From: Planktothrix mougeotii LEGE 06226
GTDB lineage: Bacteria; Cyanobacteriota; Cyanobacteriia; Cyanobacteriales; Microcoleaceae
Direction: 5' to 3'
Length of the DNA: 40,481 nt
Assembly (NCBI RefSeq): GCF_015207485.1
Contig: NZ_JADEWU010000005.1
Location: 116,508-156,988 of the forward strand
Shown: in pieces, positions 6,447 through 38,592 of the stretch
Position numbering within the stretch: the first letter of the stretch is position 1
Layout of the letters: the number at the start of each line of letters is the position of its first letter
Program-made: the position numbers and the translations under genes
The notes under the pieces: generated by a model
What the model was told of the DNA's origin: nothing
The model's database searches: none
The model's input: only the letters and a program-made list of their open reading frames with translations

Positions 6447-6755
<309 letters not shown>

Positions 6756-7158: not shown

Positions 7159-7479
<321 letters not shown>

Positions 7480-13080: not shown

Positions 13081-14499
<1,419 letters not shown>

Positions 14500-20809: not shown

Positions 20810-21006
20810 TGAAGCTCACCGATTAGCAGAGTAGCATTTCTTGACAGAACTATTGTATCCAATGTTCCTGCGAAAGTTGTCAAAATCTGTGCTTAATCTT
20901 AAATGTTTGAGGTGAAATCGGATTTGAGGAAAGGCTTGGTTTTGTTTCCGATGGTTAATCTGAAGTTTGACCTCATACACGCACTGAAGATCGCTATTTT
21001 ATCACC

Positions 21007-22710: not shown

Positions 22711-22872
22711 ACGGTAAAAACTCGGTTTCTGCTATAATCTTGTTGCTGAAAATTAAGCTTTTGATAGAAACTGGGTTTTTGGGTTGTAGGAGGGGTGATG
22801 ATCATTGAATTGATGTCATCTCTCCTACATTTTGAATTAAAATAGATAAAAACTGCTTTTTGAATTGACCTA

Positions 22873-23022
22873 TGGAAATTTTACAACAGTTGACAATTGT
22901 TGATATTTTGGTATTGGTTGCGTTCTCTCTGCTGATTATTTTTACTGGGGGTGTAATTTATTTAACCCTCGCCGAATGGCGCGATCGCAGACGTAGAGAA
23001 GAAGAAAAACGTCTACGTTAAA
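22873..23022 (+). CDS. Small single-TM protein (49 aa) with basic/acidic C-terminal tail, absent from the supplied ORF track, presumably because of a length cutoff
   Basis: The sequence is MEILQQLTIVDILVLVAFSLLIIFTGGVIYLTLAEWRDRRRREEEKRLR*. It has a clean hydrophobic helix followed by a charged tail. It is intergenic and does not overlap other CDS. Confidence 0.45.
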
Positions 23023-23044
23023 TAATAGGTAATGGGTAATGGGG

Positions 23045-23114
23045 ATCACGGATTTAAGAGGATTTCACGGATTTTAATCTGTGTTAATCTGCGTCATCCG
23101 CTTAAATCCGTGAA
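23045..23114. repeat. CACGGATTT motif x3 (two direct, one inverted), forming an 11-bp stem / 30-nt loop hairpin; possible bidirectional terminator or protein-binding site
   Basis: Copies are atcacggattt (23045-55), ttcacggattt (23063-73) and the reverse-complement copy aaatccgtgaa (23104-14). They sit between the 3' ends of the small TM gene (+) and the HTH gene (-). Confidence 0.4.
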
Positions 23115-23131
23115 AAGAAGTATTTTACCTA

Positions 23132-23863
23132 TTATAATTCACGCAATATTGTTTCGATCACCACATCGGGAAGACCAAGCAATTGAGCAATTTGGCATAG
23201 TTCGATACCTTGACTGTGCAATTTGCAAACGACATCAGCGACATCAATTTCGAGACGTTCGATCTGAGTTTTGAATCTGGAGTCAGTAGGATCATTATTG
23301 TCAGAGTCGCTAGGCGGAGAAAGACAGGGGTTGAGGTTGAGGGTGTGGACGTATTCGACATATTGAATATAATCTCTGCCGAAGTTTGAATTATTGCTAA
23401 TATTTCTGCGATCTATAGCAGCTTTGAGATTACCTTTTTGCATATCTTCATCCATAACTACCGAGAGAGTTTTGAGTAACTTGTAGCCGACTTCTCGGAC
23501 ATATTTGGTAGTGTAGCGGGTGTCACGGGCTATCGCTTCGTAGGTTTTGCCATCATACATTCCCTGAAACACTAGCTGTTGTAGCGTGTTGAGATGTTTG
23601 CCCGTTTTCTCGAAGATCAGGCAATCGACCAATTTCAGCAGTTCGTTTTCGTCAGGGACGGCTTGCAACGGGCGATCCTCCTTGGGGAGCTTATGTTGAG
23701 TCAAGGAAAAATAAAATTGTGTAAAACTTCGGGCTTTTTCAGGCTTTTTCAGGCTTTTTTGGTCAAGACAAATGCAATCAAGGTCAGGTATAGTAGTCAC
23801 AAATTTATCTGAGCGAAAGTGAGACACAATGCCTGACAATTTAGCTTTGTTAGAAAAGAACAA
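23132..23863 (-). CDS. Putative HTH transcriptional regulator (sigma-70 region-4/LuxR-like helix-turn-helix)
   Basis: LNTLQQLVFQGMYDGKTYEAIARDTRYTTKYVREVGYKLLKTL resembles sigma-70 r4/ECF-type HTH (L.ERQR.V..L...EG.SYEEIA..LG.S.GTVKSR...A.KKL). A second helical HTH-like segment is near the C-terminus. The true start may be the internal TTG at 23668, preceded by AAGGAGG at an 8-nt spacing. That start would remove the 35-bp overlap with the divergent RTX gene. Confidence 0.5.
   Translation of the reverse strand: MFFSNKAKLSGIVSHFRSDKFVTTIPDLDCICLDQKSLKKPEKARSFTQFYFSLTQHKLPKEDRPLQAVPDENELLKLVDCLIFEKTGKHLNTLQQLVFQGMYDGKTYEAIARDTRYTTKYVREVGYKLLKTLSVVMDEDMQKGNLKAAIDRRNISNNSNFGRDYIQYVEYVHTLNLNPCLSPPSDSDNNDPTDSRFKTQIERLEIDVADVVCKLHSQGIELCQIAQLLGLPDVVIETILREL
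23731..23760. repeat. 10-bp tandem repeat x3 ((G/A)GGCTTTTTC) in the divergent intergenic region between the HTH gene and the RTX gene
   Basis: I read it directly: gggctttttc aggctttttc aggctttttt. Confidence 0.55.
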
Positions 23864-26105
23864 TGACTTACTGAATGGTAGCAGTGCAGAAAGTCAGGAG
23901 GATTGCGGCTGTCCCTTCAAAAAAGCCCCGACGGTCGAAGCGGTATCGAATGCTCAGAATGTCCAGAGTATCCTTAACTTTGGGAGTAACGATACGCTAG
24001 AAGGCTCTGTCACGCAAGAGATATTAAATGCTAACACAGGAAGTGAATTTCTCCCCAGTTCTGCTGCGAATATCAGGCGATCGGCTTCTCAAGTCGGTGG
24101 TGGCTCACTTTCGAGCGATGGTAGTGCATATATTTTAACCGAGGGAAGCGACACATTTACGATTCCCCTTGGCTTGCTCGATACTCTATTGGGCGGTTTG
24201 CGGGGTTTAGGCGGTGCGGATTCGATTACGGGTTCGGAATCTGGGGATATCGTCTATGGCGATGAAGGGGATGACAGAATTGAGGGCCTCGGTGGTGCTG
24301 ATTTGTTCTACGGTGGTGCGGGCAACGATTTTCTGAGTGGCGGTGCGGGTCAAAATGGTCTCCTTGGCGGTGATGGTGCAGACACTTTGCAGGGTGGTGA
24401 AAGTGCTGATGGTGTCAATGGAAATATGGGTGATGACGTAATTTTAGGTGCAGGCGGAAACGACTTTTTGCGGGGTGGTCGCGGTAACGATATTGTCAAT
24501 GGGGAAGATGGGGATGACTTAGTAATCGGCGATTTTGGCAATGATACTTTGACTGGTGGTGCGGGTCAAGATGTGTTTTTTCTGCGCCATGAGGAGGCTT
24601 TAGGCTCTCCTACTTTTGATTTAATTACCGACTTTCAAAGAACAATTGATTTCATCGGACTTAGTACAAATCTTCGGGAATCTGATGTTATTTTGGAGTC
24701 GAAAGTGCAGCCTTCTGGTGGTTCGGCTGTGGATATTAAAGTGGCTGCAACAGGGACTTTGTTAGGTACAGTTTTGGGAGTCGCACCAGAGGATTTAAGA
24801 GGTCGATTCAGACCTTATGATGTGGAAGGAGAGCGTCCTGAAGATGTAGCGACAATTGATTTACCAGAAGTAACAAAGCTATCTGAAAATAGATTTCAGA
24901 TGGAATTTCCGGCGAGTGATGGTAGCAAATATACAGTTATTTTTCAAGATGATGCTGACGGACGTTTCGTAGAATCAGTTATATTTGTACCCAATCCTAC
25001 AACGGGTGTTCGTGGTAGTACAACGCTTTTCAATCGAGATGGTACACAGGCGGATATCACTCTTGAAGGCTCTAATGAAACTGTACGAGTTGAGAATCAA
25101 AAGAGTCAAGAACCTGGAAAGCCGGATCAAGGTGTTATATCGCGGATCAAAGATGGTCAGATTTTTGATACTGTAACTTTTCCTCTGCCAATTGAGCCGA
25201 CCGTACCTCCTAATCCTGAGCCACCAGTTACTCCTCCCCCAGTTGGGCCAGATTTTGCGAAAGCTTGTGATTCGGTTAAAGACTTTTGCATGAAAGTTAA
25301 CGACCTGGGTAAAGTGATTGATACAGTTGCTCTTGGGTTGGCAGTTGGTGGTGTAGTATTTCTTCCCCTTGAACTTGCTGCCGGAGCAGCGGAGGCAGTG
25401 GCTATTTCACTTAAAGTCGTTAAGTACAGTTGTATATTGCTTACGGGTAGTGATATGGATTTAGGTTTGAGTGCGATTAGTGATTTGTTTGGACAGGTAG
25501 TTAAGAGGTCTGGCGACCTGGAGGAATTAGCCCAACCAGATTACAAACAAATAAACGAGATCAGGTATTCTGGTGCTATGCTCATTGATTCATTTCGGGA
25601 AAAGGAGCCAACAGCCTCTAAATTAGACTTTTTGCCTCAGTTCCGAAAGTGGCTTACTGACAAGACGGGTAAGCCATTTGACTTTTGTGATAAACCTGCG
25701 ACTACTCCTGAACCAGAACCAACTTGTTTGCCAGGAGGAGGTTCAGACATTAAAGTAGAACTCATCCCTGACCGCATCCCCTACGGACAAACGGCACAAT
25801 ACACAATGACATACTGCGATCCACAAAATGACATAGACAATTTTCTCGTAGAACTTAATACAAGAAGTGGAACACAAACCAAAATCATTCCCGTTTCATC
25901 TTCCAGTGGAACGATAAGTTTTGGGATACGAAACAAGCCAAACGCTTTTGGGGACTGTTTTACATCAGGTCAATACGTGAGTGTTTCAGCTAGAAGTGGC
26001 AGTCGTGACTTAAATTCTATTGCAAATTTCACAAATTTTGGTCTTGATGGTGGATTAACTGGTAGATTCGACATTAACGGTGTGTGTGATGTAGAGTTGG
26101 TTTAA
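23829..26105 (+). CDS. RTX (hemolysin-type) calcium-binding nonapeptide-repeat protein with Pro-rich linker and C-terminal domain containing a hydrophobic segment
   Basis: GGxGxDxUx repeats are present: GGADSITGSESGDIVYGDEGDDRIEGLGGADLFYGGAGNDFLSGGAGQNGLLGGDGADTLQGGESADGVNGNMGDDVILGAGGNDFLRGGRGNDIVNGEDGDDLVIGDFGNDTLTGGAGQD. The linker is PPNPEPPVTPPPVGP. There is no N-terminal signal peptide. GC content is locally higher. Confidence 0.75.
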   Translation: MPDNLALLEKNNDLLNGSSAESQEDCGCPFKKAPTVEAVSNAQNVQSILNFGSNDTLEGSVTQEILNANTGSEFLPSSAANIRRSASQVGGGSLSSDGSAYILTEGSDTFTIPLGLLDTLLGGLRGLGGADSITGSESGDIVYGDEGDDRIEGLGGADLFYGGAGNDFLSGGAGQNGLLGGDGADTLQGGESADGVNGNMGDDVILGAGGNDFLRGGRGNDIVNGEDGDDLVIGDFGNDTLTGGAGQDVFFLRHEEALGSPTFDLITDFQRTIDFIGLSTNLRESDVILESKVQPSGGSAVDIKVAATGTLLGTVLGVAPEDLRGRFRPYDVEGERPEDVATIDLPEVTKLSENRFQMEFPASDGSKYTVIFQDDADGRFVESVIFVPNPTTGVRGSTTLFNRDGTQADITLEGSNETVRVENQKSQEPGKPDQGVISRIKDGQIFDTVTFPLPIEPTVPPNPEPPVTPPPVGPDFAKACDSVKDFCMKVNDLGKVIDTVALGLAVGGVVFLPLELAAGAAEAVAISLKVVKYSCILLTGSDMDLGLSAISDLFGQVVKRSGDLEELAQPDYKQINEIRYSGAMLIDSFREKEPTASKLDFLPQFRKWLTDKTGKPFDFCDKPATTPEPEPTCLPGGGSDIKVELIPDRIPYGQTAQYTMTYCDPQNDIDNFLVELNTRSGTQTKIIPVSSSSGTISFGIRNKPNAFGDCFTSGQYVSVSARSGSRDLNSIANFTNFGLDGGLTGRFDINGVCDVELV

Positions 26106-27505: not shown

Positions 27506-27586
27506 ATGACAATCAGACGAGGTGAAATTTGGATTACCAACTTCGATATTCCGTTGCATTCTGTTATCAAATTAATGAAATAAATT
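27506..27586 (+). pseudogene. Truncated MazF/PemK-like toxin remnant (26 codons)
   Basis: MTIRRGEIWITNFDIP… resembles the MazF/PemK N-terminus (RGEIWLVDFDP). It ends after 26 aa, abutting the UbiA gene stop. Its ATG overlaps the TGA of the upstream 62-aa ORF 27321..27509 (ATGA), a TA-like arrangement. Confidence 0.3.
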
Positions 27587-28651
27587 AATCTTAAAATACA
27601 AGATTGCTAAGTAGCAAATTAGCCAAATCATTAAACTTAATTTAATCGTAGTATCTTGAATTAAAATTCGGCTGGGTTCTTCACCTTCTGCTAACACTGT
27701 GACTAACCATTTATAGTGCATTACGGCATAATAAACAATCGGAACGGTAATCACTAACGAGGGATTTTTACCTGATGTTATTGTAAATAAAGCATAGCAC
27801 ATAATGGTCATTGTTGCTGTGCTATTGAGTAGAGAATCTAAATAAGGTAAGGTGTATTGAGAGAGAACTGGACGTTGTTGGTTTTTTCTACCTCGTTGAT
27901 AAAATAAGTGTAAATAAGAACGTTCTAACGGTGCTGATTTTATATCTTCTTGAGGTAGATTTTCAGACTCTAAACTGTCTTGATGGTTTTGAAAATGCAA
28001 GAGAGATAAAAGTTCAGAACGCCGTTTAGAAAACCCTAAAAATAAAGTTAGAAAAAAGGTACATAAAACAATCCAAGCCGTCGGCATATCTCCTAACGCA
28101 TAAATTCCTGCTAATAGCCTTAATACAAACCCAAAGGCAATACAATTAACATCAAATAAAGGTATATTTTTTAATTTTAGAGAATAAGCAATATTGTTAA
28201 TAGCGTAAAGTAAAATGCAAATTAATGTGGGAACTCCTAAAAAATATGCACCCCATAGGGAAATGATTGCTAAAGGAATTGCGATCACGAATCCCATTTT
28301 AACTGAAACTTGACCACTCGCAAGGGGACGATACTTTTTTTTCGGATGCAGGCGATCGCGTTCTCGATCTTGAATATCATTAAAAATATAAATAGCTGAT
28401 GCCATTGCTGAGAAAAAAATTACCGTTAATCCTGATAGCCAAATGCTCTGGGGCTGTAATAGTCTACCCCCAAACAAAAGTCCGGCTAAACAGAATAAAT
28501 TTTTTGTCCATTGGTGGGGGCGCAGAAGTTTAATTAGGGGGGGAATAGTTTTAGATGGAGTTGGTTTAAATAAAGGATCAGTCGTCTCAGAAATTGTCTC
28601 TAATACAGAAGTAGAATCACCCGAATAATGGTCTTGATTTGCTGGTTTCAT
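27572..28651 (-). CDS. UbiA-family prenyltransferase, decaprenyl-phosphate phosphoribosyltransferase (DPPR synthase)-like
   Basis: NDIQDRERDRLHPKKKYRPLASGQVS matches the DPPR-synthase subfamily motif (NDxxDxExDRxHPxKxxRPhAxG). There are 8-9 predicted TM helices and an N-terminal soluble extension. Confidence 0.7.
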   Translation of the reverse strand: MKPANQDHYSGDSTSVLETISETTDPLFKPTPSKTIPPLIKLLRPHQWTKNLFCLAGLLFGGRLLQPQSIWLSGLTVIFFSAMASAIYIFNDIQDRERDRLHPKKKYRPLASGQVSVKMGFVIAIPLAIISLWGAYFLGVPTLICILLYAINNIAYSLKLKNIPLFDVNCIAFGFVLRLLAGIYALGDMPTAWIVLCTFFLTLFLGFSKRRSELLSLLHFQNHQDSLESENLPQEDIKSAPLERSYLHLFYQRGRKNQQRPVLSQYTLPYLDSLLNSTATMTIMCYALFTITSGKNPSLVITVPIVYYAVMHYKWLVTVLAEGEEPSRILIQDTTIKLSLMIWLICYLAILYFKINLFH

Positions 28652-28705
28652 GAATGGTTTAACTCCTCACAGTTTAGTCTAATGAGTTCAACAGTATTTT
28701 TGACT

Positions 28706-29068
28706 TTAACGAGACATAATCACAATTCCAGCCACAATAAAGCTTAATCCTATCATTTGATTTAATCCAACACGCTCTCCTAAAAATAAGCTTCCCATCA
28801 ATGCAACTAAGCTAAAACCAATAGCAGCAAAGACAGGATAAGCAATGGAAACAGGTAAGCGATCTAAGGCTTTAGCAAAGACAATTAAGTTAATTCCATA
28901 GACTAGGATTGCTGCCATAAACCAAGGAGATAATAATAGAGTGAGTATACTGGGATCAGGAGCTTCTAGTCGAGACTTTTTGAGTAATAAATTGCCAATT
29001 CCTGTGTTCATAGCCGCAATTAAAACTAAACTCCATGAAATCCAATTAGCTGAGTTGATATTGTTCAC
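28706..29068 (-). CDS. Small 4-TM membrane protein (SMR/EamA-half or GtrA-like), putative polyprenyl-phospho-sugar flippase subunit
   Basis: It is 120 aa with four hydrophobic helices. It sits directly downstream of the UbiA gene, analogous to ArnE/F or to mycobacterial Rv3789 next to dprE1/E2. Confidence 0.55.
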   Translation of the reverse strand: MNNINSANWISWSLVLIAAMNTGIGNLLLKKSRLEAPDPSILTLLLSPWFMAAILVYGINLIVFAKALDRLPVSIAYPVFAAIGFSLVALMGSLFLGERVGLNQMIGLSFIVAGIVIMSR

Positions 29069-29161
29069 GATTTGTTATTAGAATAGGAGATTGAATTATT
29101 CTTAATCATCCTTAAAATGTTAGATGGCGCGTGCGCTGCGCTTACGCACCCTACCATTAAG

Positions 29162-30187
29162 TTAGGAGAGTTGTTTTAACACCCAAAGTAATTTTTCTTT
29201 GACGGGACGCCGATGGGCTGAACCTGCTTTTTCCGCTTGCAGTTGATTATAGTTCTTTTGAAACCAATCATAACTTTCTCGGAACATTTCATCATTAGAA
29301 TATTTAGGTTTCCAGCCCAGTTTTAGCAGAGGATCAACATCAAAATAAAATTCTTTGTGATAGGTTAAATAATGCCAAGGGGCGAGAGGACTTAACCCCA
29401 TCCAGTCTAACAGTTGTAAGGTTCCAATGGTTAATCCAGTGGGTAAACTTTTAACTTGAGACTCTGTTCCTGCATATTCAATTAAATGTTCTAACCCTTC
29501 TCGTAACGTGCCAAAGCGATCAGTTCCGACATTATAGATTCCAGGTTGACCTAAATCAAGGGCTAGAAGATAAGCATCCATTAAATCATGAGCATGAACA
29601 AACTGAAATTTAACGTTCCCACTCCCAATTACATAAACATTTTTTCCTTCTTGAATCCATTCAAATAATATCTGAAAAATTCCTAATCTTCCTTCGCCTA
29701 AAATTGTCCGAGGACGAATTACAATTAAGGGTAAACCCGCTTGATCACAAATTTCTCTAACTGCTAATTCTCCAGCTAATTTTGCTCGTCCATAAATCTC
29801 AACGGCTTTTGTCGGGGTATCATTTGTAATCGGACATTCAGCCTCGCCAAATAAAGCACTAGAACTCATGTGAATAAAACTTTTGACTCCGGCTTTTACC
29901 GCTTCTTCGGCGGCGATTTTGCTTCCTTCAACGTTGACTTCCCAGAATTTATTACCAGATTTTGTTAAGGGAACTAAAGCCACATTATGATGGACAATAT
30001 CAATATCTTTCATCGCTTTTGCAACCCCAGTGCGATCGCAAATATCACAGTTAATAAATTCAATTTCTGGGGGACGGGTCGGATCTTCCCAAATATCTAA
30101 AATTTTAACGTCTTCTCCCCGTTCATATAATCGACGGGCAATTAAATTTCCTAAAAACCCCGATCCTCCCGTAATTAAGTGCTTCAT
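29162..30187 (-). CDS. NAD-dependent epimerase/dehydratase (extended SDR)
   Basis: The N-terminal motif is MKHLITGGSGFLGNLIARRL (GxxGxxG). YxxxK context is present in the central region. Confidence 0.8.
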   Translation of the reverse strand: MKHLITGGSGFLGNLIARRLYERGEDVKILDIWEDPTRPPEIEFINCDICDRTGVAKAMKDIDIVHHNVALVPLTKSGNKFWEVNVEGSKIAAEEAVKAGVKSFIHMSSSALFGEAECPITNDTPTKAVEIYGRAKLAGELAVREICDQAGLPLIVIRPRTILGEGRLGIFQILFEWIQEGKNVYVIGSGNVKFQFVHAHDLMDAYLLALDLGQPGIYNVGTDRFGTLREGLEHLIEYAGTESQVKSLPTGLTIGTLQLLDWMGLSPLAPWHYLTYHKEFYFDVDPLLKLGWKPKYSNDEMFRESYDWFQKNYNQLQAEKAGSAHRRPVKEKLLWVLKQLS

Positions 30188-30239
30188 AAAGTTCTGTTTG
30201 TCCTCAACACCATTTGTTTTGTCGTATCATAAACGAAAT

Positions 30240-31886
30240 TTACCCATCCGTAAAGGTTAAACTTAGCTTGCGGTGTGGAACAGGTAAAAGTTGACCTTGA
30301 GAATAATAGAAAACTTGCTCAATGGGAATATTGTTTTTAATTTTAATTTGATAAGATTGATGAGTTTTAAAATCAAAATTTTCAATAGTAAATTTTTTTC
30401 GTTTAAACGTTTGTTCTAAAGGTAAACTAACATTCATAAAATAAATTCCTTCACCGACTAATTGAATTTGATAAGTATAGGGTTCAATTTCTGCAACTTT
30501 GAGTTGGTTTTCAGGACTCAGCAGATTGTGAAACGATGCAATATTCAAAAATTTTATCTTAATGTTATGAATAGAAAATAGTTGTGCTGCGTGATAAATA
30601 CCGTTTCTATAAATGTAAGCTCCTTTAAAATTATCGGGAACATTAATAATAAGTAATCCCGGTTGATTTCCCCTCTGATCATTAATGCTTTTAATCAACT
30701 GATGAGAAATTTGACTAGCTATCTGCCAATTTTTATTAGCGATATAGATATTCTTTATCAAAAATATTGAAAAAATTACTGCTAAAAAAATAATAGTATG
30801 TTTCTTTTTAACCAGAAAACTGATAATAAATACCAGTAGAATTACGAAAAAAACAGAGGGTAAATAAAGAATTCTTTCAGCTTGTGTATCCCCCAGTGAA
30901 ACTCTAATATTAATCACGGGAAACATTGAGATTAAAAAGGCATAAATTAGAAATAGTAATAACTTAGCTTGTTCTCGGTAAATCCCCCCTAACCGAAAAT
31001 ATTGAATCACAAAAATCGTAACTAAACTGATGAAGATGAGAAAACACCATTGCCATTGAACTTCTCCAGATTGAGGTAATGGAGGTATGATAATTCTAAG
31101 ACTACTAGCAAGTCCCCTGAGTATAATTGGGACAGAAAAATTAAGATGAGTTTGAGATCCATATCCACCTAATAATTGCTTTAATCCTAAATATCTCATT
31201 CCTAAATAAATTGGAAAAATAGAAGCCATTAATATTGGTAAAATCATCACCTTATAAAGCTGCTTTAGAGGTTTTTTATTTTGAAAAAATTGATAAATTT
31301 CATACCCTAAAATTAATCCAGGATAGATAATGACTGATTCTTTGGAAAGTAAAGCAAATATAAACCAGACATAAGAACTGAGTAGCCAGAACTTATTAGA
31401 GTTATGTTTGTAATATAAATAGCTATTGAAGGCGGCTAGAAAAAAACAAGTTGCTACTACATCGGAACGTGCAGAAATCCAAGTAACTGCTTCTACATGG
31501 CTGGGTAAAACTAGAAATAAAAAACCTGCAATTATAGAAATGGATTGGCTTGTTTTTTTAGATAAATGACTATGAACTAATAGCTGAGAGGAAATCAAAT
31601 AGACAAAAAAACAACAGATTCCATGAAAGATAATATTAGTGAGATGATAACCTACAGGATTTAAGCCCCAAATTTGATAATCTAAAAATAAAAGGATGGA
31701 AATTATCGGTCTAAAAAAAACATCGGGTGCAGTTGTCCATACTCCAAATATTCCTTGAGTTTGAATTTGATAAATCCAGGTAAAATCATCGGATAGAAAA
31801 AAAGAATTGATAATCGGAAAGTAAATAATAACACTCAGAACAATAGAAACAATTAAAATTCCTAGGAAGTAGCCTTTTTTAATCAT
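30240..31886 (-). CDS. Polytopic membrane protein, GT-C-type glycosyltransferase-like (polyprenyl-phosphate-sugar dependent), C-terminal soluble domain
   Basis: About 12 TM helices are predicted. An acidic motif (FLSDDFTW) sits in the first extracytoplasmic loop after TM1, as in the ArnT/PMT/Aft GT-C families. Its start overlaps the DUF218 gene stop. Confidence 0.5.
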   Translation of the reverse strand: MIKKGYFLGILIVSIVLSVIIYFPIINSFFLSDDFTWIYQIQTQGIFGVWTTAPDVFFRPIISILLFLDYQIWGLNPVGYHLTNIIFHGICCFFVYLISSQLLVHSHLSKKTSQSISIIAGFLFLVLPSHVEAVTWISARSDVVATCFFLAAFNSYLYYKHNSNKFWLLSSYVWFIFALLSKESVIIYPGLILGYEIYQFFQNKKPLKQLYKVMILPILMASIFPIYLGMRYLGLKQLLGGYGSQTHLNFSVPIILRGLASSLRIIIPPLPQSGEVQWQWCFLIFISLVTIFVIQYFRLGGIYREQAKLLLFLIYAFLISMFPVINIRVSLGDTQAERILYLPSVFFVILLVFIISFLVKKKHTIIFLAVIFSIFLIKNIYIANKNWQIASQISHQLIKSINDQRGNQPGLLIINVPDNFKGAYIYRNGIYHAAQLFSIHNIKIKFLNIASFHNLLSPENQLKVAEIEPYTYQIQLVGEGIYFMNVSLPLEQTFKRKKFTIENFDFKTHQSYQIKIKNNIPIEQVFYYSQGQLLPVPHRKLSLTFTDG

Positions 31887-32461
31887 GGTTTTAATAGATA
31901 GAGGTTTTTATAACAAATAATCCAGTGAAATACCTTAATTAAATCATAGACTAAAGCCATCGCTTCGTAAATCAAATTAGCAGGTAAATAATGATAATAA
32001 ATAAGACGTAGTGGCATCGTTCTATTTGCAAGTTCAGGATAAGAAGTAATAACTTCTTGGACGTTATAACCACACAGCTTAAACATTAACTGACTTCGTA
32101 AAGCATGGGGTTGATTACAATATAAAATCACTTCTCCTAAAGGCCATTGTTCCTGTTTTTCTAGCCATTTTCTTAATAATCTAGCATTATCAAACGTATC
32201 CAAATAGGGACGATCTTGAACATTTTCAGGAACAATAACTTGGAGTTCAGGACGATAATGTAAAAGATATTTTGCAGCACACTGTTCTTCTGATTCAGGA
32301 CAATCAAAGGAATTACCCGGAGAAATAAATACTTTTTCCTCAACAGGAACTTGCTTTAAAACTTGTTGTAAAACCGCTTCAAAATAATTTGATAAAAAGT
32401 AGTATTGAGCAAAATCTTCCCGATAAACTAATCCTTCTGTGACGACAATATGGCTAACCAT
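31883..32461 (-). CDS. DUF218 (YdcF/ElyC/SanA-like) envelope-biogenesis protein
   Basis: PYLDTFDNARLLRKWL matches the DUF218 S.NT.ENA motif. VILYCNQPHALRSQLMFKLCG matches the LVTS.YHM.RA motif. It is coupled to neighbours (overlaps at both ends). Confidence 0.55.
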   Translation of the reverse strand: MVSHIVVTEGLVYREDFAQYYFLSNYFEAVLQQVLKQVPVEEKVFISPGNSFDCPESEEQCAAKYLLHYRPELQVIVPENVQDRPYLDTFDNARLLRKWLEKQEQWPLGEVILYCNQPHALRSQLMFKLCGYNVQEVITSYPELANRTMPLRLIYYHYLPANLIYEAMALVYDLIKVFHWIICYKNLYLLKP

Positions 32462-32463
32462 GA

Positions 32464-33546
32464 TTAATCTAATCCTCCATAATTTTCAAAAATCCAGGTT
32501 AAGCTTCTTCGCATTCCTTCTTCTAAGGAAATTGTGGGATGATACCCTAATTCTCGTTGAGCTTTTGCGACCGAACAAGCAATGGTTTTATTCATTTCTG
32601 AGAGAACATGAATTTTTTGATGATAGAATCCTAGAGCTTGTAATGTTCCATCAACAACTAAAGCAACTTCACTGGCTAATCCCGATAATTTTAATCGTTT
32701 ATGAACACAATTCTGTTGAAATTCTGTTTCTAATAAGCGTTCAACGGTATCAATAATGTCATTCATGGAGTAGGGACATTCATCGGCTATCCAATAGGTT
32801 TGTCCGTTGGCTTTTTCTGTAATAGCAGCTAACAATAATCCCTGACAAAGATTATCAACATAAGCCATTGACCGGAGATTATTTCCATCCCCAACAATCG
32901 GCCCTTTTCCATCTCGAATCATTTTAAAAAATAGGGTTTGGCGTTGAGGTTGATGGGGGCCATAAAACCAAGGGGGACGAATCACAACGGTTTCAATTTC
33001 TCCCTGTTCTTGATAGTTTTTAACCGCTAATTCCATTAGCATTTTTGAACGTCCATAGTTCATATAAGGATGATAGGGAGAGATTTCATCGAATAAATGA
33101 TCAGGATGGGGATTACAACCACAGGGGGAATTTGAAGAGACAATAATTGCTCGTTTTACACCCCTACAAATGGCAGAATTTAATAGATTTTTTGTTCCTT
33201 CTACATTAATTTGATAAAATTCTGATACTTTTTGCGGGTGAATAATTCCAGCCGTATGAAATAAAATAGCATTTTCGGCATTTTCACAAAAGCGATCACA
33301 ATCTTGAGGGTGTCTTAAGTCTCCTTGATAAATTTCAATTTTATCCGATATTCTTTGCAATAGGGTTGCATCTTGTTCTGGTAAAATTAAACACCGAATT
33401 TTTAAGTTATTTTGAGGTTGATTCAGGGGTTCAAAATCGGGTAATCCTTTAACCAATGATTCGACTAAACGAATTCCTAACCACCCTAATGCACCTGTAA
33501 CTAAAATAAGGTTAGTTTTTAATTCCATAATTTTATTATTCCGCAT
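32464..33546 (-). CDS. NAD-dependent epimerase/dehydratase (extended SDR, UDP-sugar 4-epimerase/4,6-dehydratase-like)
   Basis: The N-terminal motif is ILVTGALGWLGIRLVESL. The catalytic region is YGRSKMLMELAV (YxxxK). Confidence 0.8.
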   Translation of the reverse strand: MRNNKIMELKTNLILVTGALGWLGIRLVESLVKGLPDFEPLNQPQNNLKIRCLILPEQDATLLQRISDKIEIYQGDLRHPQDCDRFCENAENAILFHTAGIIHPQKVSEFYQINVEGTKNLLNSAICRGVKRAIIVSSNSPCGCNPHPDHLFDEISPYHPYMNYGRSKMLMELAVKNYQEQGEIETVVIRPPWFYGPHQPQRQTLFFKMIRDGKGPIVGDGNNLRSMAYVDNLCQGLLLAAITEKANGQTYWIADECPYSMNDIIDTVERLLETEFQQNCVHKRLKLSGLASEVALVVDGTLQALGFYHQKIHVLSEMNKTIACSVAKAQRELGYHPTISLEEGMRRSLTWIFENYGGLD

Positions 33547-33668
33547 TAAGTAGGTAAACCAAATTAATTACACAAGACTTCATAATTGGTTATAATCCAT
33601 TGGAACAGCTTGTCCGGCGATGACATTTGTAAAACTCCTGAGTTAAGGGGTTAATTTAGTTCATTATC

Positions 33669-35126
33669 TTAAAGTTTATCTAAAAATTTTAACGCATTTC
33701 GACGAGCGATCGTCATAATTGAACCTTGAGGATTGACCCCTGGTGCGGTACAAAGTAAACTAGCATCCGCAATATATAAATTATTGAATCCATGAACTTG
33801 ACCAAAGGAATTAACAGCACATTTTTGTAAATTTTCTCCCATTGGACAGGAGGAAAAAACATGAACGGTCATTAAATTTGTTTGTTTGACAGGAAGTTTT
33901 TCTGCTATTGTACTTAAATCTTGAGGATGGGTCAAGGGAGAAGTATTAGAAATACTAGGATAGAGAATTTTTGCATCTGCTTCAAACAATAATAACGCTA
34001 ATTTTTGTAACGCTTCTGATAAATCTTTTAAATCTTGAGAAGTTAGTTTATAGCGAACAAAAGGATCACGATAAAAGGGAATATTTCTGACTGTACCCGA
34101 ACCTTCCCCAGTAATCATAGCATAATAAATTGCCATGTTTTGCCACTGTTTTTCAACGGTTTCTGTATATTGAGGATGGTCAGTCATTCCCACCGATAAA
34201 TAAGGCAGAGAACTAATCGAACATCCGAAACTAAATCGAGGTGAAAATTCTTTGACTTGATGAACAGGAACCCCCATATCTAAGGCGTTAATATTCTCAT
34301 TAAATTGAGCAATTATTTTAACTGTTGGGTGCATTCTTAATGAATTACCAATATTATTTTTAATTCCACTTCGTCTTAATAAGGCTGGAGTTTGAATCGC
34401 ACCACAACAAACAAATACGGTTTCGGCTTGAATTTTAATCGAATTTTCGGGGATATTATTCCCTTGACGAGTTCCTGTTAAAATCCAAGTTTTATCCGTT
34501 TGTTGAAGACTGTTAATCCGAGTGTTTGCTAAGAGTTTACAACCCGCTTTTAACGCTCTAGGAATAAAGGTTTTTGTCATGGATTGTCGAGTTCCTTTGG
34601 GAACAGAAGTTTCATCAGATTCTTCATGACGAAACCATCGAGGAACTTCTAAAGATTGCCAACCTAAACGTATTGCACCTTCGTGTAATTTTAAAGATGC
34701 TGTTGGAGCTTTCCCCGGTAAATAACAGACGTTAACCGCTTGTTCACAAGCTTCAAAATGAGGAATTAAATCAACTTCGGTTAAAGCGTCTACTTCAAAT
34801 TCTGTGCGCCATTGTTCTAAAATATCTGGGGGTGTACGATGATAAAGTCCGCTATTAATTTCACTTCCTCCCCCGACACATCGACCTTCCACATATTGAA
34901 TTTTGGGTTGACCAAAGGCTGCGGTTAACCCTCCATTTCGGTATTTTTGCACCATTTCTTCAACGGAAAAAGGTTGACAGGATTCTAAGGGTAAATCGTC
35001 GCCTTCTTCTATTAATAAAACATCCCGTCCTGCTTCAGCCAATAAACAGGCGGTAATCGCTCCTCCAGGGCCAGAACCAATGATGGCAATTTCAACTTTT
35101 AAATCAGATTTCGAGGGTTGAAGCAT
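33669..35126 (-). CDS. GMC-family FAD-dependent oxidoreductase
   Basis: The N-terminal FAD motif is VEIAIIGSGPGGAITACLLAEAGRDVLLIEEG. The C-terminus carries the GMC_oxred_C-like region (…NLYIADASLLCTAPGVNPQGSIMTIARR). Confidence 0.8.
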   Translation of the reverse strand: MLQPSKSDLKVEIAIIGSGPGGAITACLLAEAGRDVLLIEEGDDLPLESCQPFSVEEMVQKYRNGGLTAAFGQPKIQYVEGRCVGGGSEINSGLYHRTPPDILEQWRTEFEVDALTEVDLIPHFEACEQAVNVCYLPGKAPTASLKLHEGAIRLGWQSLEVPRWFRHEESDETSVPKGTRQSMTKTFIPRALKAGCKLLANTRINSLQQTDKTWILTGTRQGNNIPENSIKIQAETVFVCCGAIQTPALLRRSGIKNNIGNSLRMHPTVKIIAQFNENINALDMGVPVHQVKEFSPRFSFGCSISSLPYLSVGMTDHPQYTETVEKQWQNMAIYYAMITGEGSGTVRNIPFYRDPFVRYKLTSQDLKDLSEALQKLALLLFEADAKILYPSISNTSPLTHPQDLSTIAEKLPVKQTNLMTVHVFSSCPMGENLQKCAVNSFGQVHGFNNLYIADASLLCTAPGVNPQGSIMTIARRNALKFLDKL

Positions 35127-35146
35127 AGGATTAATAATAAGTCAGT

Positions 35147-35515
35147 TTATAAATGAATTGAATCAGATTGCCAATATAATACCACTAGACTTTCATAAAA
35201 TCGCATCACATCTCGACAAACTTGGAAGGGTGAATTTTTCCAAGCTTTAACTTGAAGTTGACGACTAGATGGAGACTGACAATGAAAAAAGGAACCTCGA
35301 CGAAGCAAACCCCAAAAATCAAAAATTAACGTTAATAAAAATAGGGGAAATTGTAAATAATCAGGCATTCGATTCTGTTCTTCTAAAACAAACTTAACAA
35401 CAGAATTATGGGGAAATTTTAGGGGAGTACAATCCGATGGAAAACGCTGATCAATTAAAGAATAACACAACGCAGAGACAGTATTTACAAAGAGTTGTTG
35501 AATCATAGTTGACAA
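35147..35515 (-). CDS. Hypothetical 122-aa protein downstream of the GMC oxidoreductase
   Basis: The ORF lies 21 bp after the GMC start, in the same orientation. No motif was recognised. One hydrophobic segment is present (FPLFLLTLIFDFWGLL). Confidence 0.3.
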   Translation of the reverse strand: MSTMIQQLFVNTVSALCYSLIDQRFPSDCTPLKFPHNSVVKFVLEEQNRMPDYLQFPLFLLTLIFDFWGLLRRGSFFHCQSPSSRQLQVKAWKNSPFQVCRDVMRFYESLVVLYWQSDSIHL

Positions 35516-35564
35516 TCCGGCTTACTTCCTTTAAAATCTGGCAATGTTTTTATGATAATCCCGA

Positions 35565-37367
35565 ATGAACCTACGTGCATCATCTATTTATGCTCAGATT
35601 CCTTTAATTATTTTATATCTAATCCCTCCCTTGGCAACGGCTTGGTTTATTCTTGATTATGGAGTGGATGTCCCTTATCATGATCAATGGATATTACCTA
35701 GTTTATTCGAGAATTTTAAAAGCGGAACTTTACAATTTATTGATTTATTTAATTTACATAATTATCATCGGTTAATCTTCCCGAAGTTGATTTTTTTAGG
35801 TCTAGGGTTAACTTCAAACTGGAATATTTATGCAGAGCTAATTTGTAGCTTTTCACTAGCAATTCTAACCTTTTTAGGCCTTTATCAACTCTCCCGACTT
35901 ACAAACCCTGAGCAACAAGATAACTTGTTTCATCTAACAAACCTGCTAACCAGTTTAGTCTTTTTTTCTTGGATTCAATATCAAAATTGGCTTTGGGGAT
36001 TTCAGGTTGCTATATTTTTAATTAATTTTTGTACTATTTCTGCTTGTTTAATATTATCTTACCCTAAGTTTTTATCAACTAAATGGCAATATATTGGCTC
36101 GGCTATTTTATGCGGAATTGCTAGTTTTTCTTCGGCTCAAGGTTTAGCATCTTGGTTGGCTTTAATTCCTTGTGTTTTAGGGTTAGAAGGAAGTTTGACT
36201 CAACGAAGAAAGCGTCTGTTGGTTTGGATTTTATTATTTTTAATTTCTGTATATCTTTATTTCCTCGGTTATCAACCCGATGAAGCATTAAAAAATGATG
36301 CGTTTAAAAATAATCCTGATTTAGCTCAAAATCCTAGTTTATTTTTAATTCATTTTCTATTTAATATTATTGCTTCTCCCTTAATCGGTTCCCTGCAATG
36401 GTCTTGGGTTTTGGGTTTGATCATCCTTTGGTATTTCTTTTATCTCCTCTATGAACTATTAATTAAAAATCATCATCTCTATTCTTTCACTTTTCCTTGG
36501 ATATCCATTGGGTTATTTGGCTTGCTTTCCAGTGTTCTAATTGCTAAGGGACGTTATTATTTAGGCGCCGACTATGGTATTCTACAAAGTTCTCGCTTTA
36601 CTACTCATACTTTACTATTATTGGTCGCTATCTTTCAACTGAGTTTGATTTGGGTGCGCTTCAAAATTTCTGCTTTAGAATTATTAAAAAATCAGGGAAT
36701 TAATACTGTCCTAACTTATGGTGTGTTAGTCGGTATTTTAGGGAGTTTAACAATATTGAGAGGAGAATATGCAGTCATTCAAGCAACGGATTTAAGTTTT
36801 TTCTTAAAGAGTGGTCAAACCTGTTTAACACTGATTGATTATCTGGAAGATTCTCCTTTTCTGAACACTTCAGTAGACAGTTGTTTAGTCAGAATTTATC
36901 CTGATGTTGCCTTTTTAAGACAGGAGGTAAAAAGACTAAAAACCTTACAATTAAGAACTTTTGCTGAAACAATTCCTTTTGTATCTGACCCTAATTTAAA
37001 ATATGGTTATCTTCATCCTTTACCCAATAATGAGCCTTTAGTCATTCGCCGTAAAATGCCAATGAGTTTAAGCGGGTGGGCAATTCTCCCAGATTCCCAA
37101 CAACAACCTAATCTTATTTTTCTGTCCTATAACAATCAAAAATCATTTTTTGCCAATGCTTATATTACAGTGGCTAGACCTGATATTGCTGAATTATTAA
37201 AATCGAAATCCTATACAAGAGCCGGATGGCAAGTTGTTTTTTCAGGAGAATCTCTTCCTGTAGGCGAGAACAAGATTAAAGCTTGGGTTTATGACCCAAA
37301 ACGTCAACAATTTATTCAATTAAACGGTGAAAATTCTGTGACGGTTAAACCAAAAAAGAAACCCTAA
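35565..37367 (+). CDS. Polytopic membrane protein (about 13 TM) with C-terminal soluble beta-rich domain, GT-C-like candidate
   Basis: It is a 600-aa hydrophobic protein. Acidic residues sit in the first loop (ILDYGVDVPYHDQW). The C-terminal approx. 130 aa are hydrophilic. It is divergent from the GMC/SDR genes. Confidence 0.5.
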   Translation: MNLRASSIYAQIPLIILYLIPPLATAWFILDYGVDVPYHDQWILPSLFENFKSGTLQFIDLFNLHNYHRLIFPKLIFLGLGLTSNWNIYAELICSFSLAILTFLGLYQLSRLTNPEQQDNLFHLTNLLTSLVFFSWIQYQNWLWGFQVAIFLINFCTISACLILSYPKFLSTKWQYIGSAILCGIASFSSAQGLASWLALIPCVLGLEGSLTQRRKRLLVWILLFLISVYLYFLGYQPDEALKNDAFKNNPDLAQNPSLFLIHFLFNIIASPLIGSLQWSWVLGLIILWYFFYLLYELLIKNHHLYSFTFPWISIGLFGLLSSVLIAKGRYYLGADYGILQSSRFTTHTLLLLVAIFQLSLIWVRFKISALELLKNQGINTVLTYGVLVGILGSLTILRGEYAVIQATDLSFFLKSGQTCLTLIDYLEDSPFLNTSVDSCLVRIYPDVAFLRQEVKRLKTLQLRTFAETIPFVSDPNLKYGYLHPLPNNEPLVIRRKMPMSLSGWAILPDSQQQPNLIFLSYNNQKSFFANAYITVARPDIAELLKSKSYTRAGWQVVFSGESLPVGENKIKAWVYDPKRQQFIQLNGENSVTVKPKKKP

Positions 37368-37407: not shown

Positions 37408-38499
37408 ATGAAACCAGAAAATGAAATTATTTTAATCGGAGGCGGTTTAATCGGATTATCCCTAGCCGTTGAGTTAAAATTACGAGGGGCAACGGTAACT
37501 GTTCTAAGTCGAAATCAACAGGAAGCGGCGGGTATCGTAGGGGCTGGAATGTTAGCCCCCCAAGCCGAACAAATTCCTCCTGGCCCCATGCTAGACTTAT
37601 GTTTACGCAGTCGCGCCCTCTATAACGACTGGACACGCAAACTGGAGGAACTCACGGGGTTAGAAACTGGATATTGGCCCTGTGGGATTTTAGCCCCCGT
37701 CTACGAACGTCCCGACTGTATCATCTTACCCCAAACCCCAGACACACCGAGTTACTGGCTTGAACGAGAAGCAATTTTACAGCAGCAACCGGGGTTAGGG
37801 GATGACGTTGTGGGAGGATGGTGGTTTCCCCAGGATGGTCAAGTCGATAACCGTCGGGGGTTAGTCAAAACCTTGTACAGGGCGGCTCAGGAATTAGGGG
37901 TTAAAATTATAGAAGAAATCACAGTCAAAACCTTAGTAACTTCCCCAGAAAAGGTAACAGAAATTATCACCAATCAAGGTAATTTTAACGCCGATCATTA
38001 TATTTTAACAACGGGAGCTTGGGCTGGAGACTTATTATCAATTCCCGTCTATCCCCGCAAAGGACAAATGTTATCTGTCCGAGTTCCTGATGGTTTTGAA
38101 TCCTTACCTTTGAAACAGGTTTTATTCGGTTCTAATATTTATATTGTCCCCCGTCGAGATGGTTTAATTGTGATTGGAGCGACATCAGAAGATGTGGGAT
38201 TTACCTGCGGTTTAACCCCCAATGGTATTGAAACCTTACTCTCAGGAGCGATGCGATTATATCCGATTTTAAAAGAGTTTCCCCTTCAAGAATTTTGGTG
38301 GGGATTTCGACCGGAAACGCCAGATTTATTACCCATATTAGGGCCGAGTTCTTGGGAAAATTTAACCTTAGCCGTTGGTCATTATCGCAATGGAATTTTA
38401 TTGGCTCCGGTTACGGCTGAATTAATTTCTAATTGGGTTTTAGACCAACAAGATGATCCTTTATTCGATTATTTTAGAAGCGATCGCTTTCAACCCTAA
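37408..38499 (+). CDS. thiO: Glycine oxidase ThiO (FAD-dependent, DAO family)
   Basis: The N-terminal motif is IILIGGGLIGLSLAVEL. The C-terminal AVGHYRNGILLAPVTAELISNWV matches ThiO (AAGHFRNGILLAPATGALISDLI in B. subtilis). YIVPRRDGLIVIGAT also matches. It stands alone and is not fused to ThiG. Confidence 0.75.
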   Translation: MKPENEIILIGGGLIGLSLAVELKLRGATVTVLSRNQQEAAGIVGAGMLAPQAEQIPPGPMLDLCLRSRALYNDWTRKLEELTGLETGYWPCGILAPVYERPDCIILPQTPDTPSYWLEREAILQQQPGLGDDVVGGWWFPQDGQVDNRRGLVKTLYRAAQELGVKIIEEITVKTLVTSPEKVTEIITNQGNFNADHYILTTGAWAGDLLSIPVYPRKGQMLSVRVPDGFESLPLKQVLFGSNIYIVPRRDGLIVIGATSEDVGFTCGLTPNGIETLLSGAMRLYPILKEFPLQEFWWGFRPETPDLLPILGPSSWENLTLAVGHYRNGILLAPVTAELISNWVLDQQDDPLFDYFRSDRFQP

Positions 38500-38550
38500 G
38501 AGCTAAAATTATCAGATATATAGAAAGCTGAAACCCTTTCACTTCTTACT

Positions 38551-38578
38551 GTTCCCTGTTCCCTGTTCCCTGTTCCCT
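38551..38578. repeat. Heptamer tandem repeat GTTCCCT x4 (STRR-like)
   Basis: I read it directly, just upstream of the 38593 start. Confidence 0.75.
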
Positions 38579-38592
38579 GCTATAAAATTTCT

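Follow-up and report, generated by a model that had tools for sequence, protein, structure and literature searches.

What is made by a block of nine genes in the cyanobacterium Planktothrix mougeotii LEGE 06226 in which a UbiA-family enzyme is encoded beside a small membrane protein, a flavin-dependent oxidoreductase and two large polytopic membrane proteins? The block lies in a window of 40,481 nucleotides (assembly GCF_015207485.1, contig NZ_JADEWU010000005.1, positions 116,508 to 156,988), which is the whole stretch of DNA analysed here and the frame for all coordinates below. We consider it likely that the block encodes an extracytoplasmic pentofuranose glycosylation system that works with a polyprenyl-phosphate-linked donor. 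Eight co-directional genes on the minus strand (27572-35515) are transcribed in the order p122 (a conserved protein), GMC (an FAD-dependent oxidoreductase), SDR2 (an extended short-chain dehydrogenase/reductase, SDR), a DUF218-like gene, GTC1 (a polytopic protein of predicted glycosyltransferase-C, GT-C, fold), SDR1 (a further extended SDR), SMR (small multidrug resistance family) and UbiA. GTC2, also of predicted GT-C fold, is divergent from p122 across a 49-nt spacer and extends on the plus strand to 37367, all nine genes lying within 9.8 kb (Table 1). Intergenic gaps of -4 to 122 nt make the layout operon-like, and because the gaps are this short and synteny of the block extends to many genomes, the arrangement is not due to chance. 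Every gene listed in a preliminary description of this DNA was recovered in its place by Pfam, NCBIfam and open reading frame (ORF) analyses; the description had overlooked one conserved gene, p122, upstream of GMC.

The case for a lipid-linked pentose begins with the UbiA protein, which is 100% identical to a P. mougeotii protein at NCBI, carries NDIQDRERDRLHPKKKYRPLASG and matches PF01040 (E=3e-26). Its top NCBIfam models are the three equivalogs for decaprenylphosphoryl-5-phosphoribose (DPPR) synthase, at 230.0, 191.1 and 127.6 bits, and the model for fusions of a HAD domain with UbiA, PRK08238, scores 167 bits, as compared with at most 62 bits for each of the quinone, haem, chlorophyll, tocopherol, archaeal-lipid and EboC models (at most 36 bits for ChlG, HPT, UbiA, MenA/MqnP, CyoE and EboC). 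The closest PDB match is Mycobacterium tuberculosis Rv3806c (8j8j, E=3.4e-31), in which the Asp-rich motif N-D-x-x-D-x-x-x-D of the window protein (N91, D92, D95, D99) is formed by N73, D74, D77 and D81. In Rv3806c, N73 and D77 are Mg/pyrophosphate ligands, R22, K87, R90 and K143 form a K/R cluster together with Y138, and K28, Y70, Q135 and Y157 contact the 5-phosphoribose; according to the structure paper, ordinary UbiA enzymes do not share the phosphoribose sites (PMC10994848). Residues R22, K28, Y70, N73, D77, K87, R90, Y138 and K143 are identical in the window protein (R44, K50, Y88, N91, D95, K105, R108, Y156 and K161), and two are conservatively substituted, Q135 by N153 and Y157 by F175, Phe at the latter position also occurring in some mycobacteria. 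On account of these model scores, the Rv3806c match and the residues of the site for 5-phosphoribosyl 1-pyrophosphate (PRPP), the protein groups with DPPR synthases and not with the chlorophyll, tocopherol and menaquinone enzymes; the latter grouping is the one that the preliminary description had named as refuting its own assignment. By family placement and conserved PRPP-binding residues it is most likely a DPPR-synthase-type phosphoribosyltransferase, as that description had proposed.

The same data bear on the simplest rival, namely an ordinary UbiA prenyltransferase of quinone, chlorophyll, tocopherol or secondary metabolism within a cluster that makes a prenylated small molecule or lipid. 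Public annotation as 'UbiA prenyltransferase family protein' or '4-hydroxybenzoate polyprenyltransferase' would fit this, as would scores below the NCBIfam DPPR-synthase cut-offs, but the low scores of the ordinary-UbiA models, the retention of phosphoribose-binding residues specific to Rv3806c, and the SMR and GT-C neighbours have largely refuted it already, and we regard it as highly improbable. Membership in the ebo/Ubi-297 UbiA cluster (PMC9235831) was likewise rejected, the EboC model reaching 21 bits only. A search of phage genomes with the UbiA protein (tblastn) returned a single unannotated 6.6-kb record and nothing else. We also observed that, relative to Rv3806c and to homologues of 290 aa, UbiA is longer by an insertion of some 45 residues (~215-258) that follows the KRxxEL motif and is shared by the close relatives in Oscillatoriales (340-360 aa).

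Enzymes that would use such a donor are suggested by the two polytopic proteins. Neither GTC1 nor GTC2 has a Pfam match even at E<=10, and profile searches of the PDB with 38 and 40 homologues, respectively, gave only chance matches (motilin receptor, adenovirus E3); with sequence searches void, the GT-C assignment rests on fold comparison. AlphaFold2 models built from these two alignments have predicted local distance difference test (pLDDT) scores of 91.9 for GTC1 and 93.1 for GTC2, and a predicted template-modelling (pTM) score of 0.92. In a Foldseek search of the PDB, the top 24 matches of GTC1 contain, besides GT-C enzymes, nothing but GAB1, a PIG-U homologue that is a GT-C-fold subunit of glycosylphosphatidylinositol (GPI) transamidase; ArnT (5f15, E=1.3e-4, TM-score 0.47) leads the list, which includes STT3, PglB, DPY19, Pmt4, ALG12 and AftA. 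The significant fold matches of GTC2 are GT-C enzymes as well, with a resemblance to AftB and AftA. Directly after the first transmembrane (TM) segment, GTC1 has the motif FLSDDF with invariant acidic D33/D34, and GTC2 has an invariant D40; invariant residues of GTC1 include D33, R59, H81, H130, E132, R140, D142, K182 and E183. Each protein ends in a beta domain, at about residues 410-540 in GTC1 and, as a beta-sandwich, at about 480-600 in GTC2, reminiscent of the carbohydrate-binding module in ORF12 of Citrobacter youngae and in the Emb proteins. Both models thus show the GT-C fold with a first-loop acidic residue, in agreement with the preliminary description, and a corresponding transferase activity is predicted.

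At family level, Pfam PMT_2 is matched by 5 of the 38 GTC1 homologues, and no GTC2 homologue matches a glycosyltransferase or any other recognisable Pfam family; among labelled matches, the GTC2 family is almost wholly cyanobacterial. Comparisons by hhalign of GTC1, GTC2, a Verrucomicrobial 542-aa family and a Nostoc 615-aa family were not significant (probabilities 0.1-5.7%). The two genes are among the lowest in GC of the block (0.30 for GTC1 and 0.33 for GTC2, against 0.385 for the whole window and 0.44 for the neighbouring thiO gene), and both are missing from the cassette of sister Planktothrix (L007-L011, L013), which consists of ThiO, p122, GMC, SDR2, DUF218, SDR1, SMR and UbiA only. 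In the window, GTC1 is found as an insertion after DUF218 and ahead of SDR1, and GTC2 as one that separates p122 from ThiO. The absence of the GT-C genes from sister species indicates that the donor cassette is the conserved core and the transferases variable add-ons. The GT-C genes look like strain-specific, low-GC acquisitions, a pattern expected of surface-glycan diversification.

A flippase candidate stands next to UbiA. The 120-aa protein matches PF00893 (Multi_Drug_Res) over the full profile length (E=2.9e-12, 47.4 bits against a cut-off of 23.7), and its best NCBIfam model is ArnE, all NCBIfam subfamily models remaining under their cut-offs. Its gene adjoins UbiA in the five loci retrieved as L001-L005, and we propose the protein as a candidate flippase for polyprenyl-phosphate-pentose. 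The earlier comparison of this protein with Rv3789 and ArnEF therefore survives in its second half, the protein being SMR- and ArnE-like by both Pfam and NCBIfam; the first half probably falls, since Rv3789 is GtrA-like, not SMR, and the cluster has no GtrA-like homologue.

The DUF218-like protein, which has neither a TM segment nor a signal peptide, scores 26.6 bits against PF02698, below the cut-off of 27.6. The DUF218 assignment made in the preliminary description is thus sub-threshold for the window protein itself and borne out by its family, in which 19 of 20 orthologues match at E<=0.01 (best 3.6e-8). T89, H119 and several Glu are invariant in this family, and SanA, a DUF218 protein, needs a Thr/His/Glu triad (PMC12176290); a profile search of the PDB found no match, YdcF included. 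The DUF218 proteins ElyC and SanA affect undecaprenyl-linked envelope intermediates (PMC12176290, PMC3879167). The window protein is a candidate for an enzyme acting on a polyprenyl-phosphate-linked intermediate. As a stand-in for the HAD phosphatase of related loci, where such an enzyme is either fused to UbiA or adjacent, it is kept only as a weak possibility, because the two distributions are only partly complementary. The DUF218-like gene occurs in 24 loci (23 labelled cyanobacterial, one unlabelled) and never with a HAD-UbiA fusion, and Verrucomicrobial loci with an unfused UbiA have an adjacent HAD gene instead; against this, Nostoc-type loci carry both HAD and DUF218-like genes, and two Oscillatoria loci carry neither.

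Has such a system been described before? In Citrobacter youngae O1/O2 (ORF12-ORF15), Kelly et al. 2024 characterised three components, namely a polyprenyl-phosphate phosphoribose synthase (PPPRS) that includes a HAD phosphatase domain, a flippase resembling EmrE and ArnE, and a GT-C enzyme (GT136), with optional epimerases, namely ORF13 for xylofuranose (Xylf) and DprE1/E2 homologues for arabinofuranose (Araf); ORF13 is an extended SDR, a C3-epimerase that turns undecaprenyl-phosphate-ribofuranose (undP-Ribf) into undP-Xylf, and this Citrobacter system of PPPRS, flippase, GT-C and SDR C3-epimerase is biochemically proven (PMC11127046). The view of the preliminary description that such pathways are poorly characterised outside Corynebacterineae and rhizobial noe genes has been overtaken by that work. 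The window block shares with it a UbiA-type PRPP-using synthase, an EmrE/ArnE-like 4-TM flippase candidate, a GT-C protein that has an Asp in its first loop and ends in a beta domain resembling a carbohydrate-binding module, and an auxiliary extended SDR, so that synthase, small flippase and GT-C are encoded together; the phosphoribose 5-phosphatase of the three-component systems was not found among the nine block proteins. Unlike in the Citrobacter system, a HAD phosphoribose phosphatase is neither fused to the window synthase nor encoded next to it, the block adds two SDRs with GMC and p122, a DUF218-like protein and two GT-Cs that cannot be placed in a CAZy or Pfam family by sequence, and it does not lie in an O-antigen locus. 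Kelly et al. 2024 also mention "more elaborate systems" with several epimerases or GT-Cs and list candidates in several taxa, among them Rhizobium sp. CCGE531 CP032687.1 (their SI Fig. S12), which we find to carry a cassette orthologous to that of the window; GMC enzymes, oxidoreductases, DUF218 and cyanobacteria go unmentioned in both paper and supplement, and p122 is not discussed there either (PMC11127046). The system is a modified form of the three-component type described by Kelly et al. 2024, neither a new kind nor a copy of the mycobacterial decaprenyl-phospho-arabinose (DPA) pathway, and its element new to the described systems is the set of p122, GMC and two SDRs.

Likeness to the DPA pathway, on which the preliminary description had built, is confined to a homologous first step, to the logic by which lipid-linked ribose would be remodelled by redox chemistry, flipped and transferred by GT-C enzymes, and to the AftB- and AftA-like fold of GTC2. 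As a copy of that pathway the cluster does not hold up, because Rv3806c is the only DPA enzyme with a homologue in it; it lacks the VAO-type DprE1, the DprE2 reductase, the PAP2 phosphatase Rv3807c and the GtrA-like protein. Oxidation here would use a GMC-type flavoenzyme with a small partner, and the carrier is presumably a C55 polyprenol. The two SDRs had also been likened to DprE2, a comparison that fails since DprE2 is a classical SDR and both of these are extended SDRs (PF01370, 341 and 360 aa). With ArnT and ArnE-ArnF the block has in common an SMR-type flippase for undecaprenyl-phosphate-pentose and ArnT as the best Foldseek match of GTC1. In the Arn pathway, however, the donor is made by the GT-2 enzyme ArnC and derives from a UDP-sugar, where the window system would start from PRPP and use UbiA; the Arn sugar is the pyranose L-Ara4N, and no Arn biosynthetic enzymes are found in the window cluster.

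To place the oxidoreductase in this scheme, its gene was followed across genomes. With the GMC protein alone as query and one genome per species (185,579 species), we obtained 80 loci, the neighbours of which were annotated by the window proteins and by all-against-all clustering; 56 of them are well flanked (at least 5 kb on both sides), and neighbours were counted within a radius of 9 kb. A UbiA gene of the DPPR-synthase family was present in 45 of these 56, SDR2 and SDR1 in 43 each, p122 in 34, SMR in 26 and the DUF218-like gene in 19, as compared with only 7 for GTC1 and 8 for GTC2. The loci span at least five phyla, Cyanobacteria, Verrucomicrobiota (15 of 15 with UbiA), Planctomycetota, Acidobacteriota and Eremiobacterota; some taxon labels of metagenome-assembled genomes look unreliable (e.g. 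"Bifidobacterium", "Klebsiella") and were counted as "other". The UbiA partners fall into three DPPR-synthase subtypes: that of the window, one found in Nostoc/Okeania that scores above the NF008978 cut-off, and a fusion of HAD with UbiA that clears PRK08238 at over 600 bits and has the architecture of the biochemically proven C. youngae ORF15. No DprE1/DprE2-like family, nor any other family outside the cassette, is conserved across the 80 loci. GMC, SDR2 and SDR1 stay with a DPPR-synthase-type UbiA over these phyla and on rhizobial plasmids, and the other neighbours change. By this cross-phylum linkage the GMC protein is predicted to be functionally tied to UbiA, which fits the DprE1-like oxidation step suggested for it in the preliminary description.

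The cassette comes in larger and smaller versions. Among the loci of UbiA homologues, Capilliphycus and a metagenome contig of Oscillatoriales (L003, L005) have all the genes; there is a reduced set of DUF218-like gene, SDR1, GTC1, SMR and UbiA in L004, which lies near a contig end with no GMC, SDR2 or p122 within reach, and a minimal set of SMR, UbiA, HAD and a PMT_2 GT-C in Microcoleus vaginatus (L001). The lack of GMC, SDR2 and p122 from L004 and the existence of Verrucomicrobial loci with GMC and no SDR show that the module is separable. On plasmids, tblastn located the cassette on the symbiosis plasmids pNGR234a of Sinorhizobium fredii NGR234 (L087; 299625-307690, genes NGR_RS31055-31085), where it lies a few kb from nodS/nodU, and pRCCGE531b of Rhizobium sp. 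CCGE531 (L086). The rhizobial order is SDR, SMR, a small hypothetical protein and GMC, and divergently a 658-aa hypothetical protein, SDR and HAD-UbiA, with identities to the window proteins of 44% for SDR1, 41% for SMR, 38.5% for GMC and 47% for SDR2; the small protein aligns weakly with p122. The rhizobial version thus resembles the window in having SDR1, SMR, a p122-like protein, GMC, SDR2, a DPPR-synthase-type UbiA and a large hypothetical membrane protein, and differs from it in being plasmid-borne, in its HAD-fused UbiA of about 480 aa, in lacking the DUF218-like protein and in having only one large membrane protein. Literature searches on the pNGR234a genes y4nG-M, on GMC with UbiA and arabinofuranose, and on GMC with phosphoribosyltransferase and polyprenyl found nothing relevant.

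This linkage weighs on a second rival, according to which unmodified ribofuranose is transferred and GMC and the SDRs are merely co-located, acting on nucleotide sugars for the acceptor glycan or on a polyprenol or terpenoid lipid. The weak matches of the SDRs to nucleoside-diphosphate (NDP)-sugar epimerase/dehydratase and 3beta-HSD/HpnA/OleD-type families, the distant similarity of the GMC protein to cholesterol oxidase, and the minimal system in M. vaginatus, which has no GMC, SDR or p122 gene in its set, are all compatible with it. Set against these are the persistence of GMC, SDR2 and SDR1 beside the synthase over at least five phyla and rhizobial plasmids, the lack of a nucleotidyltransferase or Leloir glycosyltransferase in the cassette, and the fusion of p122 both to GMC and to a GT-C, and we consider mere co-location improbable.

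The GMC protein itself matches GMC_oxred_N (PF00732, E=8e-31, 108 bits) and GMC_oxred_C (PF05199, E=4e-17, 63.5 bits), both above cut-off, and has the motif GSGPGG at residues 17-22. It has no signal peptide and no TM segment and is thus cytoplasmic. H422 and N465 align with a His and with the NPQG Asn of cellobiose dehydrogenase, which we take to be the catalytic pair of that enzyme, and the protein is a candidate oxidase of a pentose hydroxyl. The small p122 protein belongs to a family with 453 representatives among 1.84 billion representative proteins and no Pfam model; the true start of the window protein is likely the ATG at Met4, and orthologues that are 56-59% identical occupy the same position in L003 and L005. 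In P0415 (618 aa) p122 is fused to a full GMC protein, a junction shared by three fragments, and in one case (P0492, 675 aa) to a PMT_2 GT-C. These fusions come from metagenomic proteins, in which single cases may be gene-call artefacts; the repeated p122-GMC junction supports a physical partnership, and p122 is probably a subunit or adaptor of the GMC enzyme.

Both SDRs have a Gly-rich nucleotide motif and YxxxK and, as read from their sequences, no T-D-E motif of 4,6-dehydratases, and their database matches are generic. SDR1 matches Pfam Epimerase (E=1.6e-40) and also 3Beta_HSD, has the motifs GGSGFLG and YGRAK, and finds generic GalE/NSDHL-type enzymes in the PDB, which makes it a candidate epimerase or ketoreductase on a lipid-linked pentose. 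SDR2 matches Pfam Epimerase (E=1.2e-29) with the motifs TGALGWLG and YGRSK, its gene directly follows GMC in most loci, and it is a candidate ketoreductase or epimerase partner of the GMC enzyme.

What these enzymes would make can be read in more than one way. The module might be a functional analogue of the DPA pathway, with GMC in place of DprE1 (2'-oxidation) and one SDR in place of DprE2 (2'-keto reduction), yielding polyprenyl-phosphate-D-arabinofuranose for arabinofuranosyltransferases. A flavoenzyme would then be paired with an NAD(P)H reductase as in DprE1/DprE2, consistent with the adjacency of GMC and SDR2 in nearly all loci and with the absence of a DprE1/E2-like family kept across the 80. 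Such an analogue, however, leaves no role for the second conserved SDR, SDR1, and does not single out C2, as GMC enzymes oxidise C1, C2, C3 and primary alcohols; moreover, the only characterised extended-SDR auxiliary, ORF13, gives Xylf by C3 epimerisation, and the transferases resemble Aft enzymes in fold no more closely than they do Pmt, ALG or ArnT. We regard this analogue as possible, with real doubts.

Alternatively, and by analogy, one GalE-like SDR could make xylofuranose as ORF13 does in C. youngae O2, with GMC/p122 and the second SDR adding a second inversion (lyxofuranose, Lyxf), a C5 oxidation or a keto-sugar, and each GT-C perhaps using its own donor. ORF13 sets a precedent for one extended SDR acting singly, and its TGxxGxxG and YxxxK motifs have counterparts in both SDRs here; L004 suggests that SDR1 can act by itself, with GMC, SDR2 and p122 as a separable module, and the full cluster has two GT-Cs. 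Yet L004 is near a contig end, and its remaining genes could sit elsewhere; the orthology of SDR1 and ORF13 is only putative, and lyxofuranose has never been found in a glycan (PMC11127046). This route, too, we hold to be rather doubtful. The arabinofuranose foreseen in the preliminary description is accordingly only one of several possible products, which may be Araf, Xylf, Lyxf or an oxidised pentose.

For a pentofuranose glycosylation system with a polyprenyl-phosphate-linked donor, the steps would be as follows. On the cytoplasmic face the UbiA-type enzyme would move ribose-5-phosphate from PRPP to polyprenyl phosphate, and the 5-phosphate would be taken off by an enzyme encoded by an unlinked gene outside the cluster or possibly, as a speculation, by the DUF218-like protein. 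GMC with p122 would oxidise a hydroxyl of the lipid-linked ribofuranose, and the two extended SDRs would reduce or epimerise the keto-intermediate to an epimer of ribofuranose, whether Araf, Xylf or the doubly inverted Lyxf, a chemistry that we infer because the genes are linked and because DprE1/DprE2 and ORF13 offer analogies. An SMR homodimer may then flip the lipid-linked sugar to the periplasmic face, where GTC1 and GTC2 would transfer it to one or two acceptors, polysaccharide or protein, and where the C-terminal beta domain of each may bind carbohydrate.

Several observations weigh against this interpretation. The UbiA protein falls below the NCBIfam equivalog cut-offs (230.0 against 234 for NF008977, 191.1 against 207 for NF008978 and 127.6 against 474 for NF008976), although the two best scores are narrow misses and the DPPR-synthase models remain far ahead of other UbiA models. 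No HAD or PAP2 domain was found by Pfam or NCBIfam among the nine block proteins, which leaves removal of the 5-phosphate without an assigned enzyme. Extended SDRs usually act on nucleotide sugars, and the GMC enzyme might oxidise any of several hydroxyls or have the lipid, in place of the sugar, as its substrate. UbiA is not nearby in 11 of the 56 well-flanked GMC loci, and in five Verrucomicrobial loci (L037, L038, L041, L043, L051) GMC is accompanied only by a HAD-UbiA fusion and a divergent 542-aa membrane protein, the 9 kb around it being free of SDR genes. The link between donor and GT-C in this strain rests on adjacency, together with the recurrence of the two GT-C genes in other Oscillatoriales; glycan backbone genes were not found near the cluster. 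Promoter and terminator scans of the region gave counts not above those of shuffled controls.

Table 1. Genes of the block in window coordinates, in order of transcription, with the divergent gene last
Gene and product	Coordinates	Strand	Domain or basis
p122, conserved protein, 122 aa	35147-35515	-	without Pfam match
GMC, FAD-dependent GMC oxidoreductase, 485 aa	33669-35126	-	PF00732 + PF05199
SDR2, extended SDR, 360 aa	32464-33546	-	Pfam Epimerase
DUF218-like protein, 192 aa	31883-32461	-	PF02698, just under cut-off
GTC1, polytopic GT-C-fold protein, 548 aa	30240-31886	-	predicted fold
SDR1, extended SDR, 341 aa	29162-30187	-	Pfam Epimerase
SMR-family small membrane protein, 120 aa	28706-29068	-	PF00893
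UbiA-family protein, 359 aa, no fused HAD domain	27572-28651	-	PF01040
GTC2, polytopic GT-C-fold protein, 600 aa	35565-37367	+	predicted fold

The ThiO gene (37408-38499), which scores 347 bits against the glycine oxidase equivalog model (cut-off 251), was excluded as a housekeeping neighbour that flanks the cassette in only 17 of the 80 loci, all of them cyanobacterial and including Planktothrix. A plus-strand ORF of 105 aa (32439-32756) was judged spurious, as it overlaps conserved genes on the opposite strand. The best sigma-70-like match of the region (35509-35537, plus strand; TTGACA, 17 nt, TAAAAT, 11/12) lies in the divergent spacer upstream of GTC2. Rfam and tRNA scans of the window gave no matches, and the spacer after thiO contains a CTGTTCC repeat of 4.4 copies (38549-38579).

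Directly upstream of the cluster (17877-26105) are genes for a ShlB/FhaC-type two-partner-secretion transporter, a DUF928 protein, a transglutaminase-like protein and a 758-aa RTX-repeat protein. No evidence ties these to the glycosylation genes, the secreted RTX protein being a conceivable acceptor. A perfect 23-nt repeat of 2.5 copies (17821-17877) lies just past the 3' end of the ShlB-type gene. Further away, a 500-aa ORF with an N-terminal DUF5331 (14608-16110, minus strand) lies between chlL (16147-17013) and chlN (13081-14487) and contains a 42-nt tandem repeat (15128-15411; 6.8 copies, 94% match, local GC 0.50). Next to chlN, low-GC genes (0.30-0.34; 9728-12974, minus strand) encode an AAA_15/AAA_21/DUF3696 ATPase, a GmrSD_N (DUF262-type) protein and a 319-aa protein, and this is probably a small anti-phage defence islet. 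Tandem paralogous genes for plant-type [2Fe-2S] ferredoxins are found at 6447-6743 (98 aa) and 7159-7449 (96 aa), both on the minus strand.

To our knowledge, DprE1/DprE2 and the single SDR ORF13 are the only characterised bacterial ways to diversify lipid-linked pentofuranose donors, and epimerisation of the DprE1/DprE2 type is a leading tuberculosis drug target. If the GMC module is confirmed, it would represent an independent solution to the problem solved by DprE1/DprE2, and would serve as a bioinformatic marker for pentofuranose-bearing surface glycans. As an unlikely but more far-reaching proposal, p122, GMC, SDR2 and SDR1 would constitute an unrecognised, widespread non-DprE1 route that remodels polyprenyl-phosphate-ribofuranose and may yield a pentofuranose from no known pathway, for example D-lyxofuranose (inverted at C2 and C3) or a keto- or C5-oxidised pentofuranose, on the surfaces of cyanobacteria, Verrucomicrobiota, Planctomycetota and rhizobia. 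Should the module make only Araf or Xylf, it would extend the work of Kelly et al. 2024 in a useful but incremental way. The groups concerned include bloom-forming Planktothrix, Limnospira (food "spirulina"), lichen Nostoc, Verrucomicrobiota and nodulating rhizobia. For Planktothrix itself, the strain-specific low-GC GT-C genes suggest a serotype-like variation of the cell surface, which could matter for interactions with phages and grazers.

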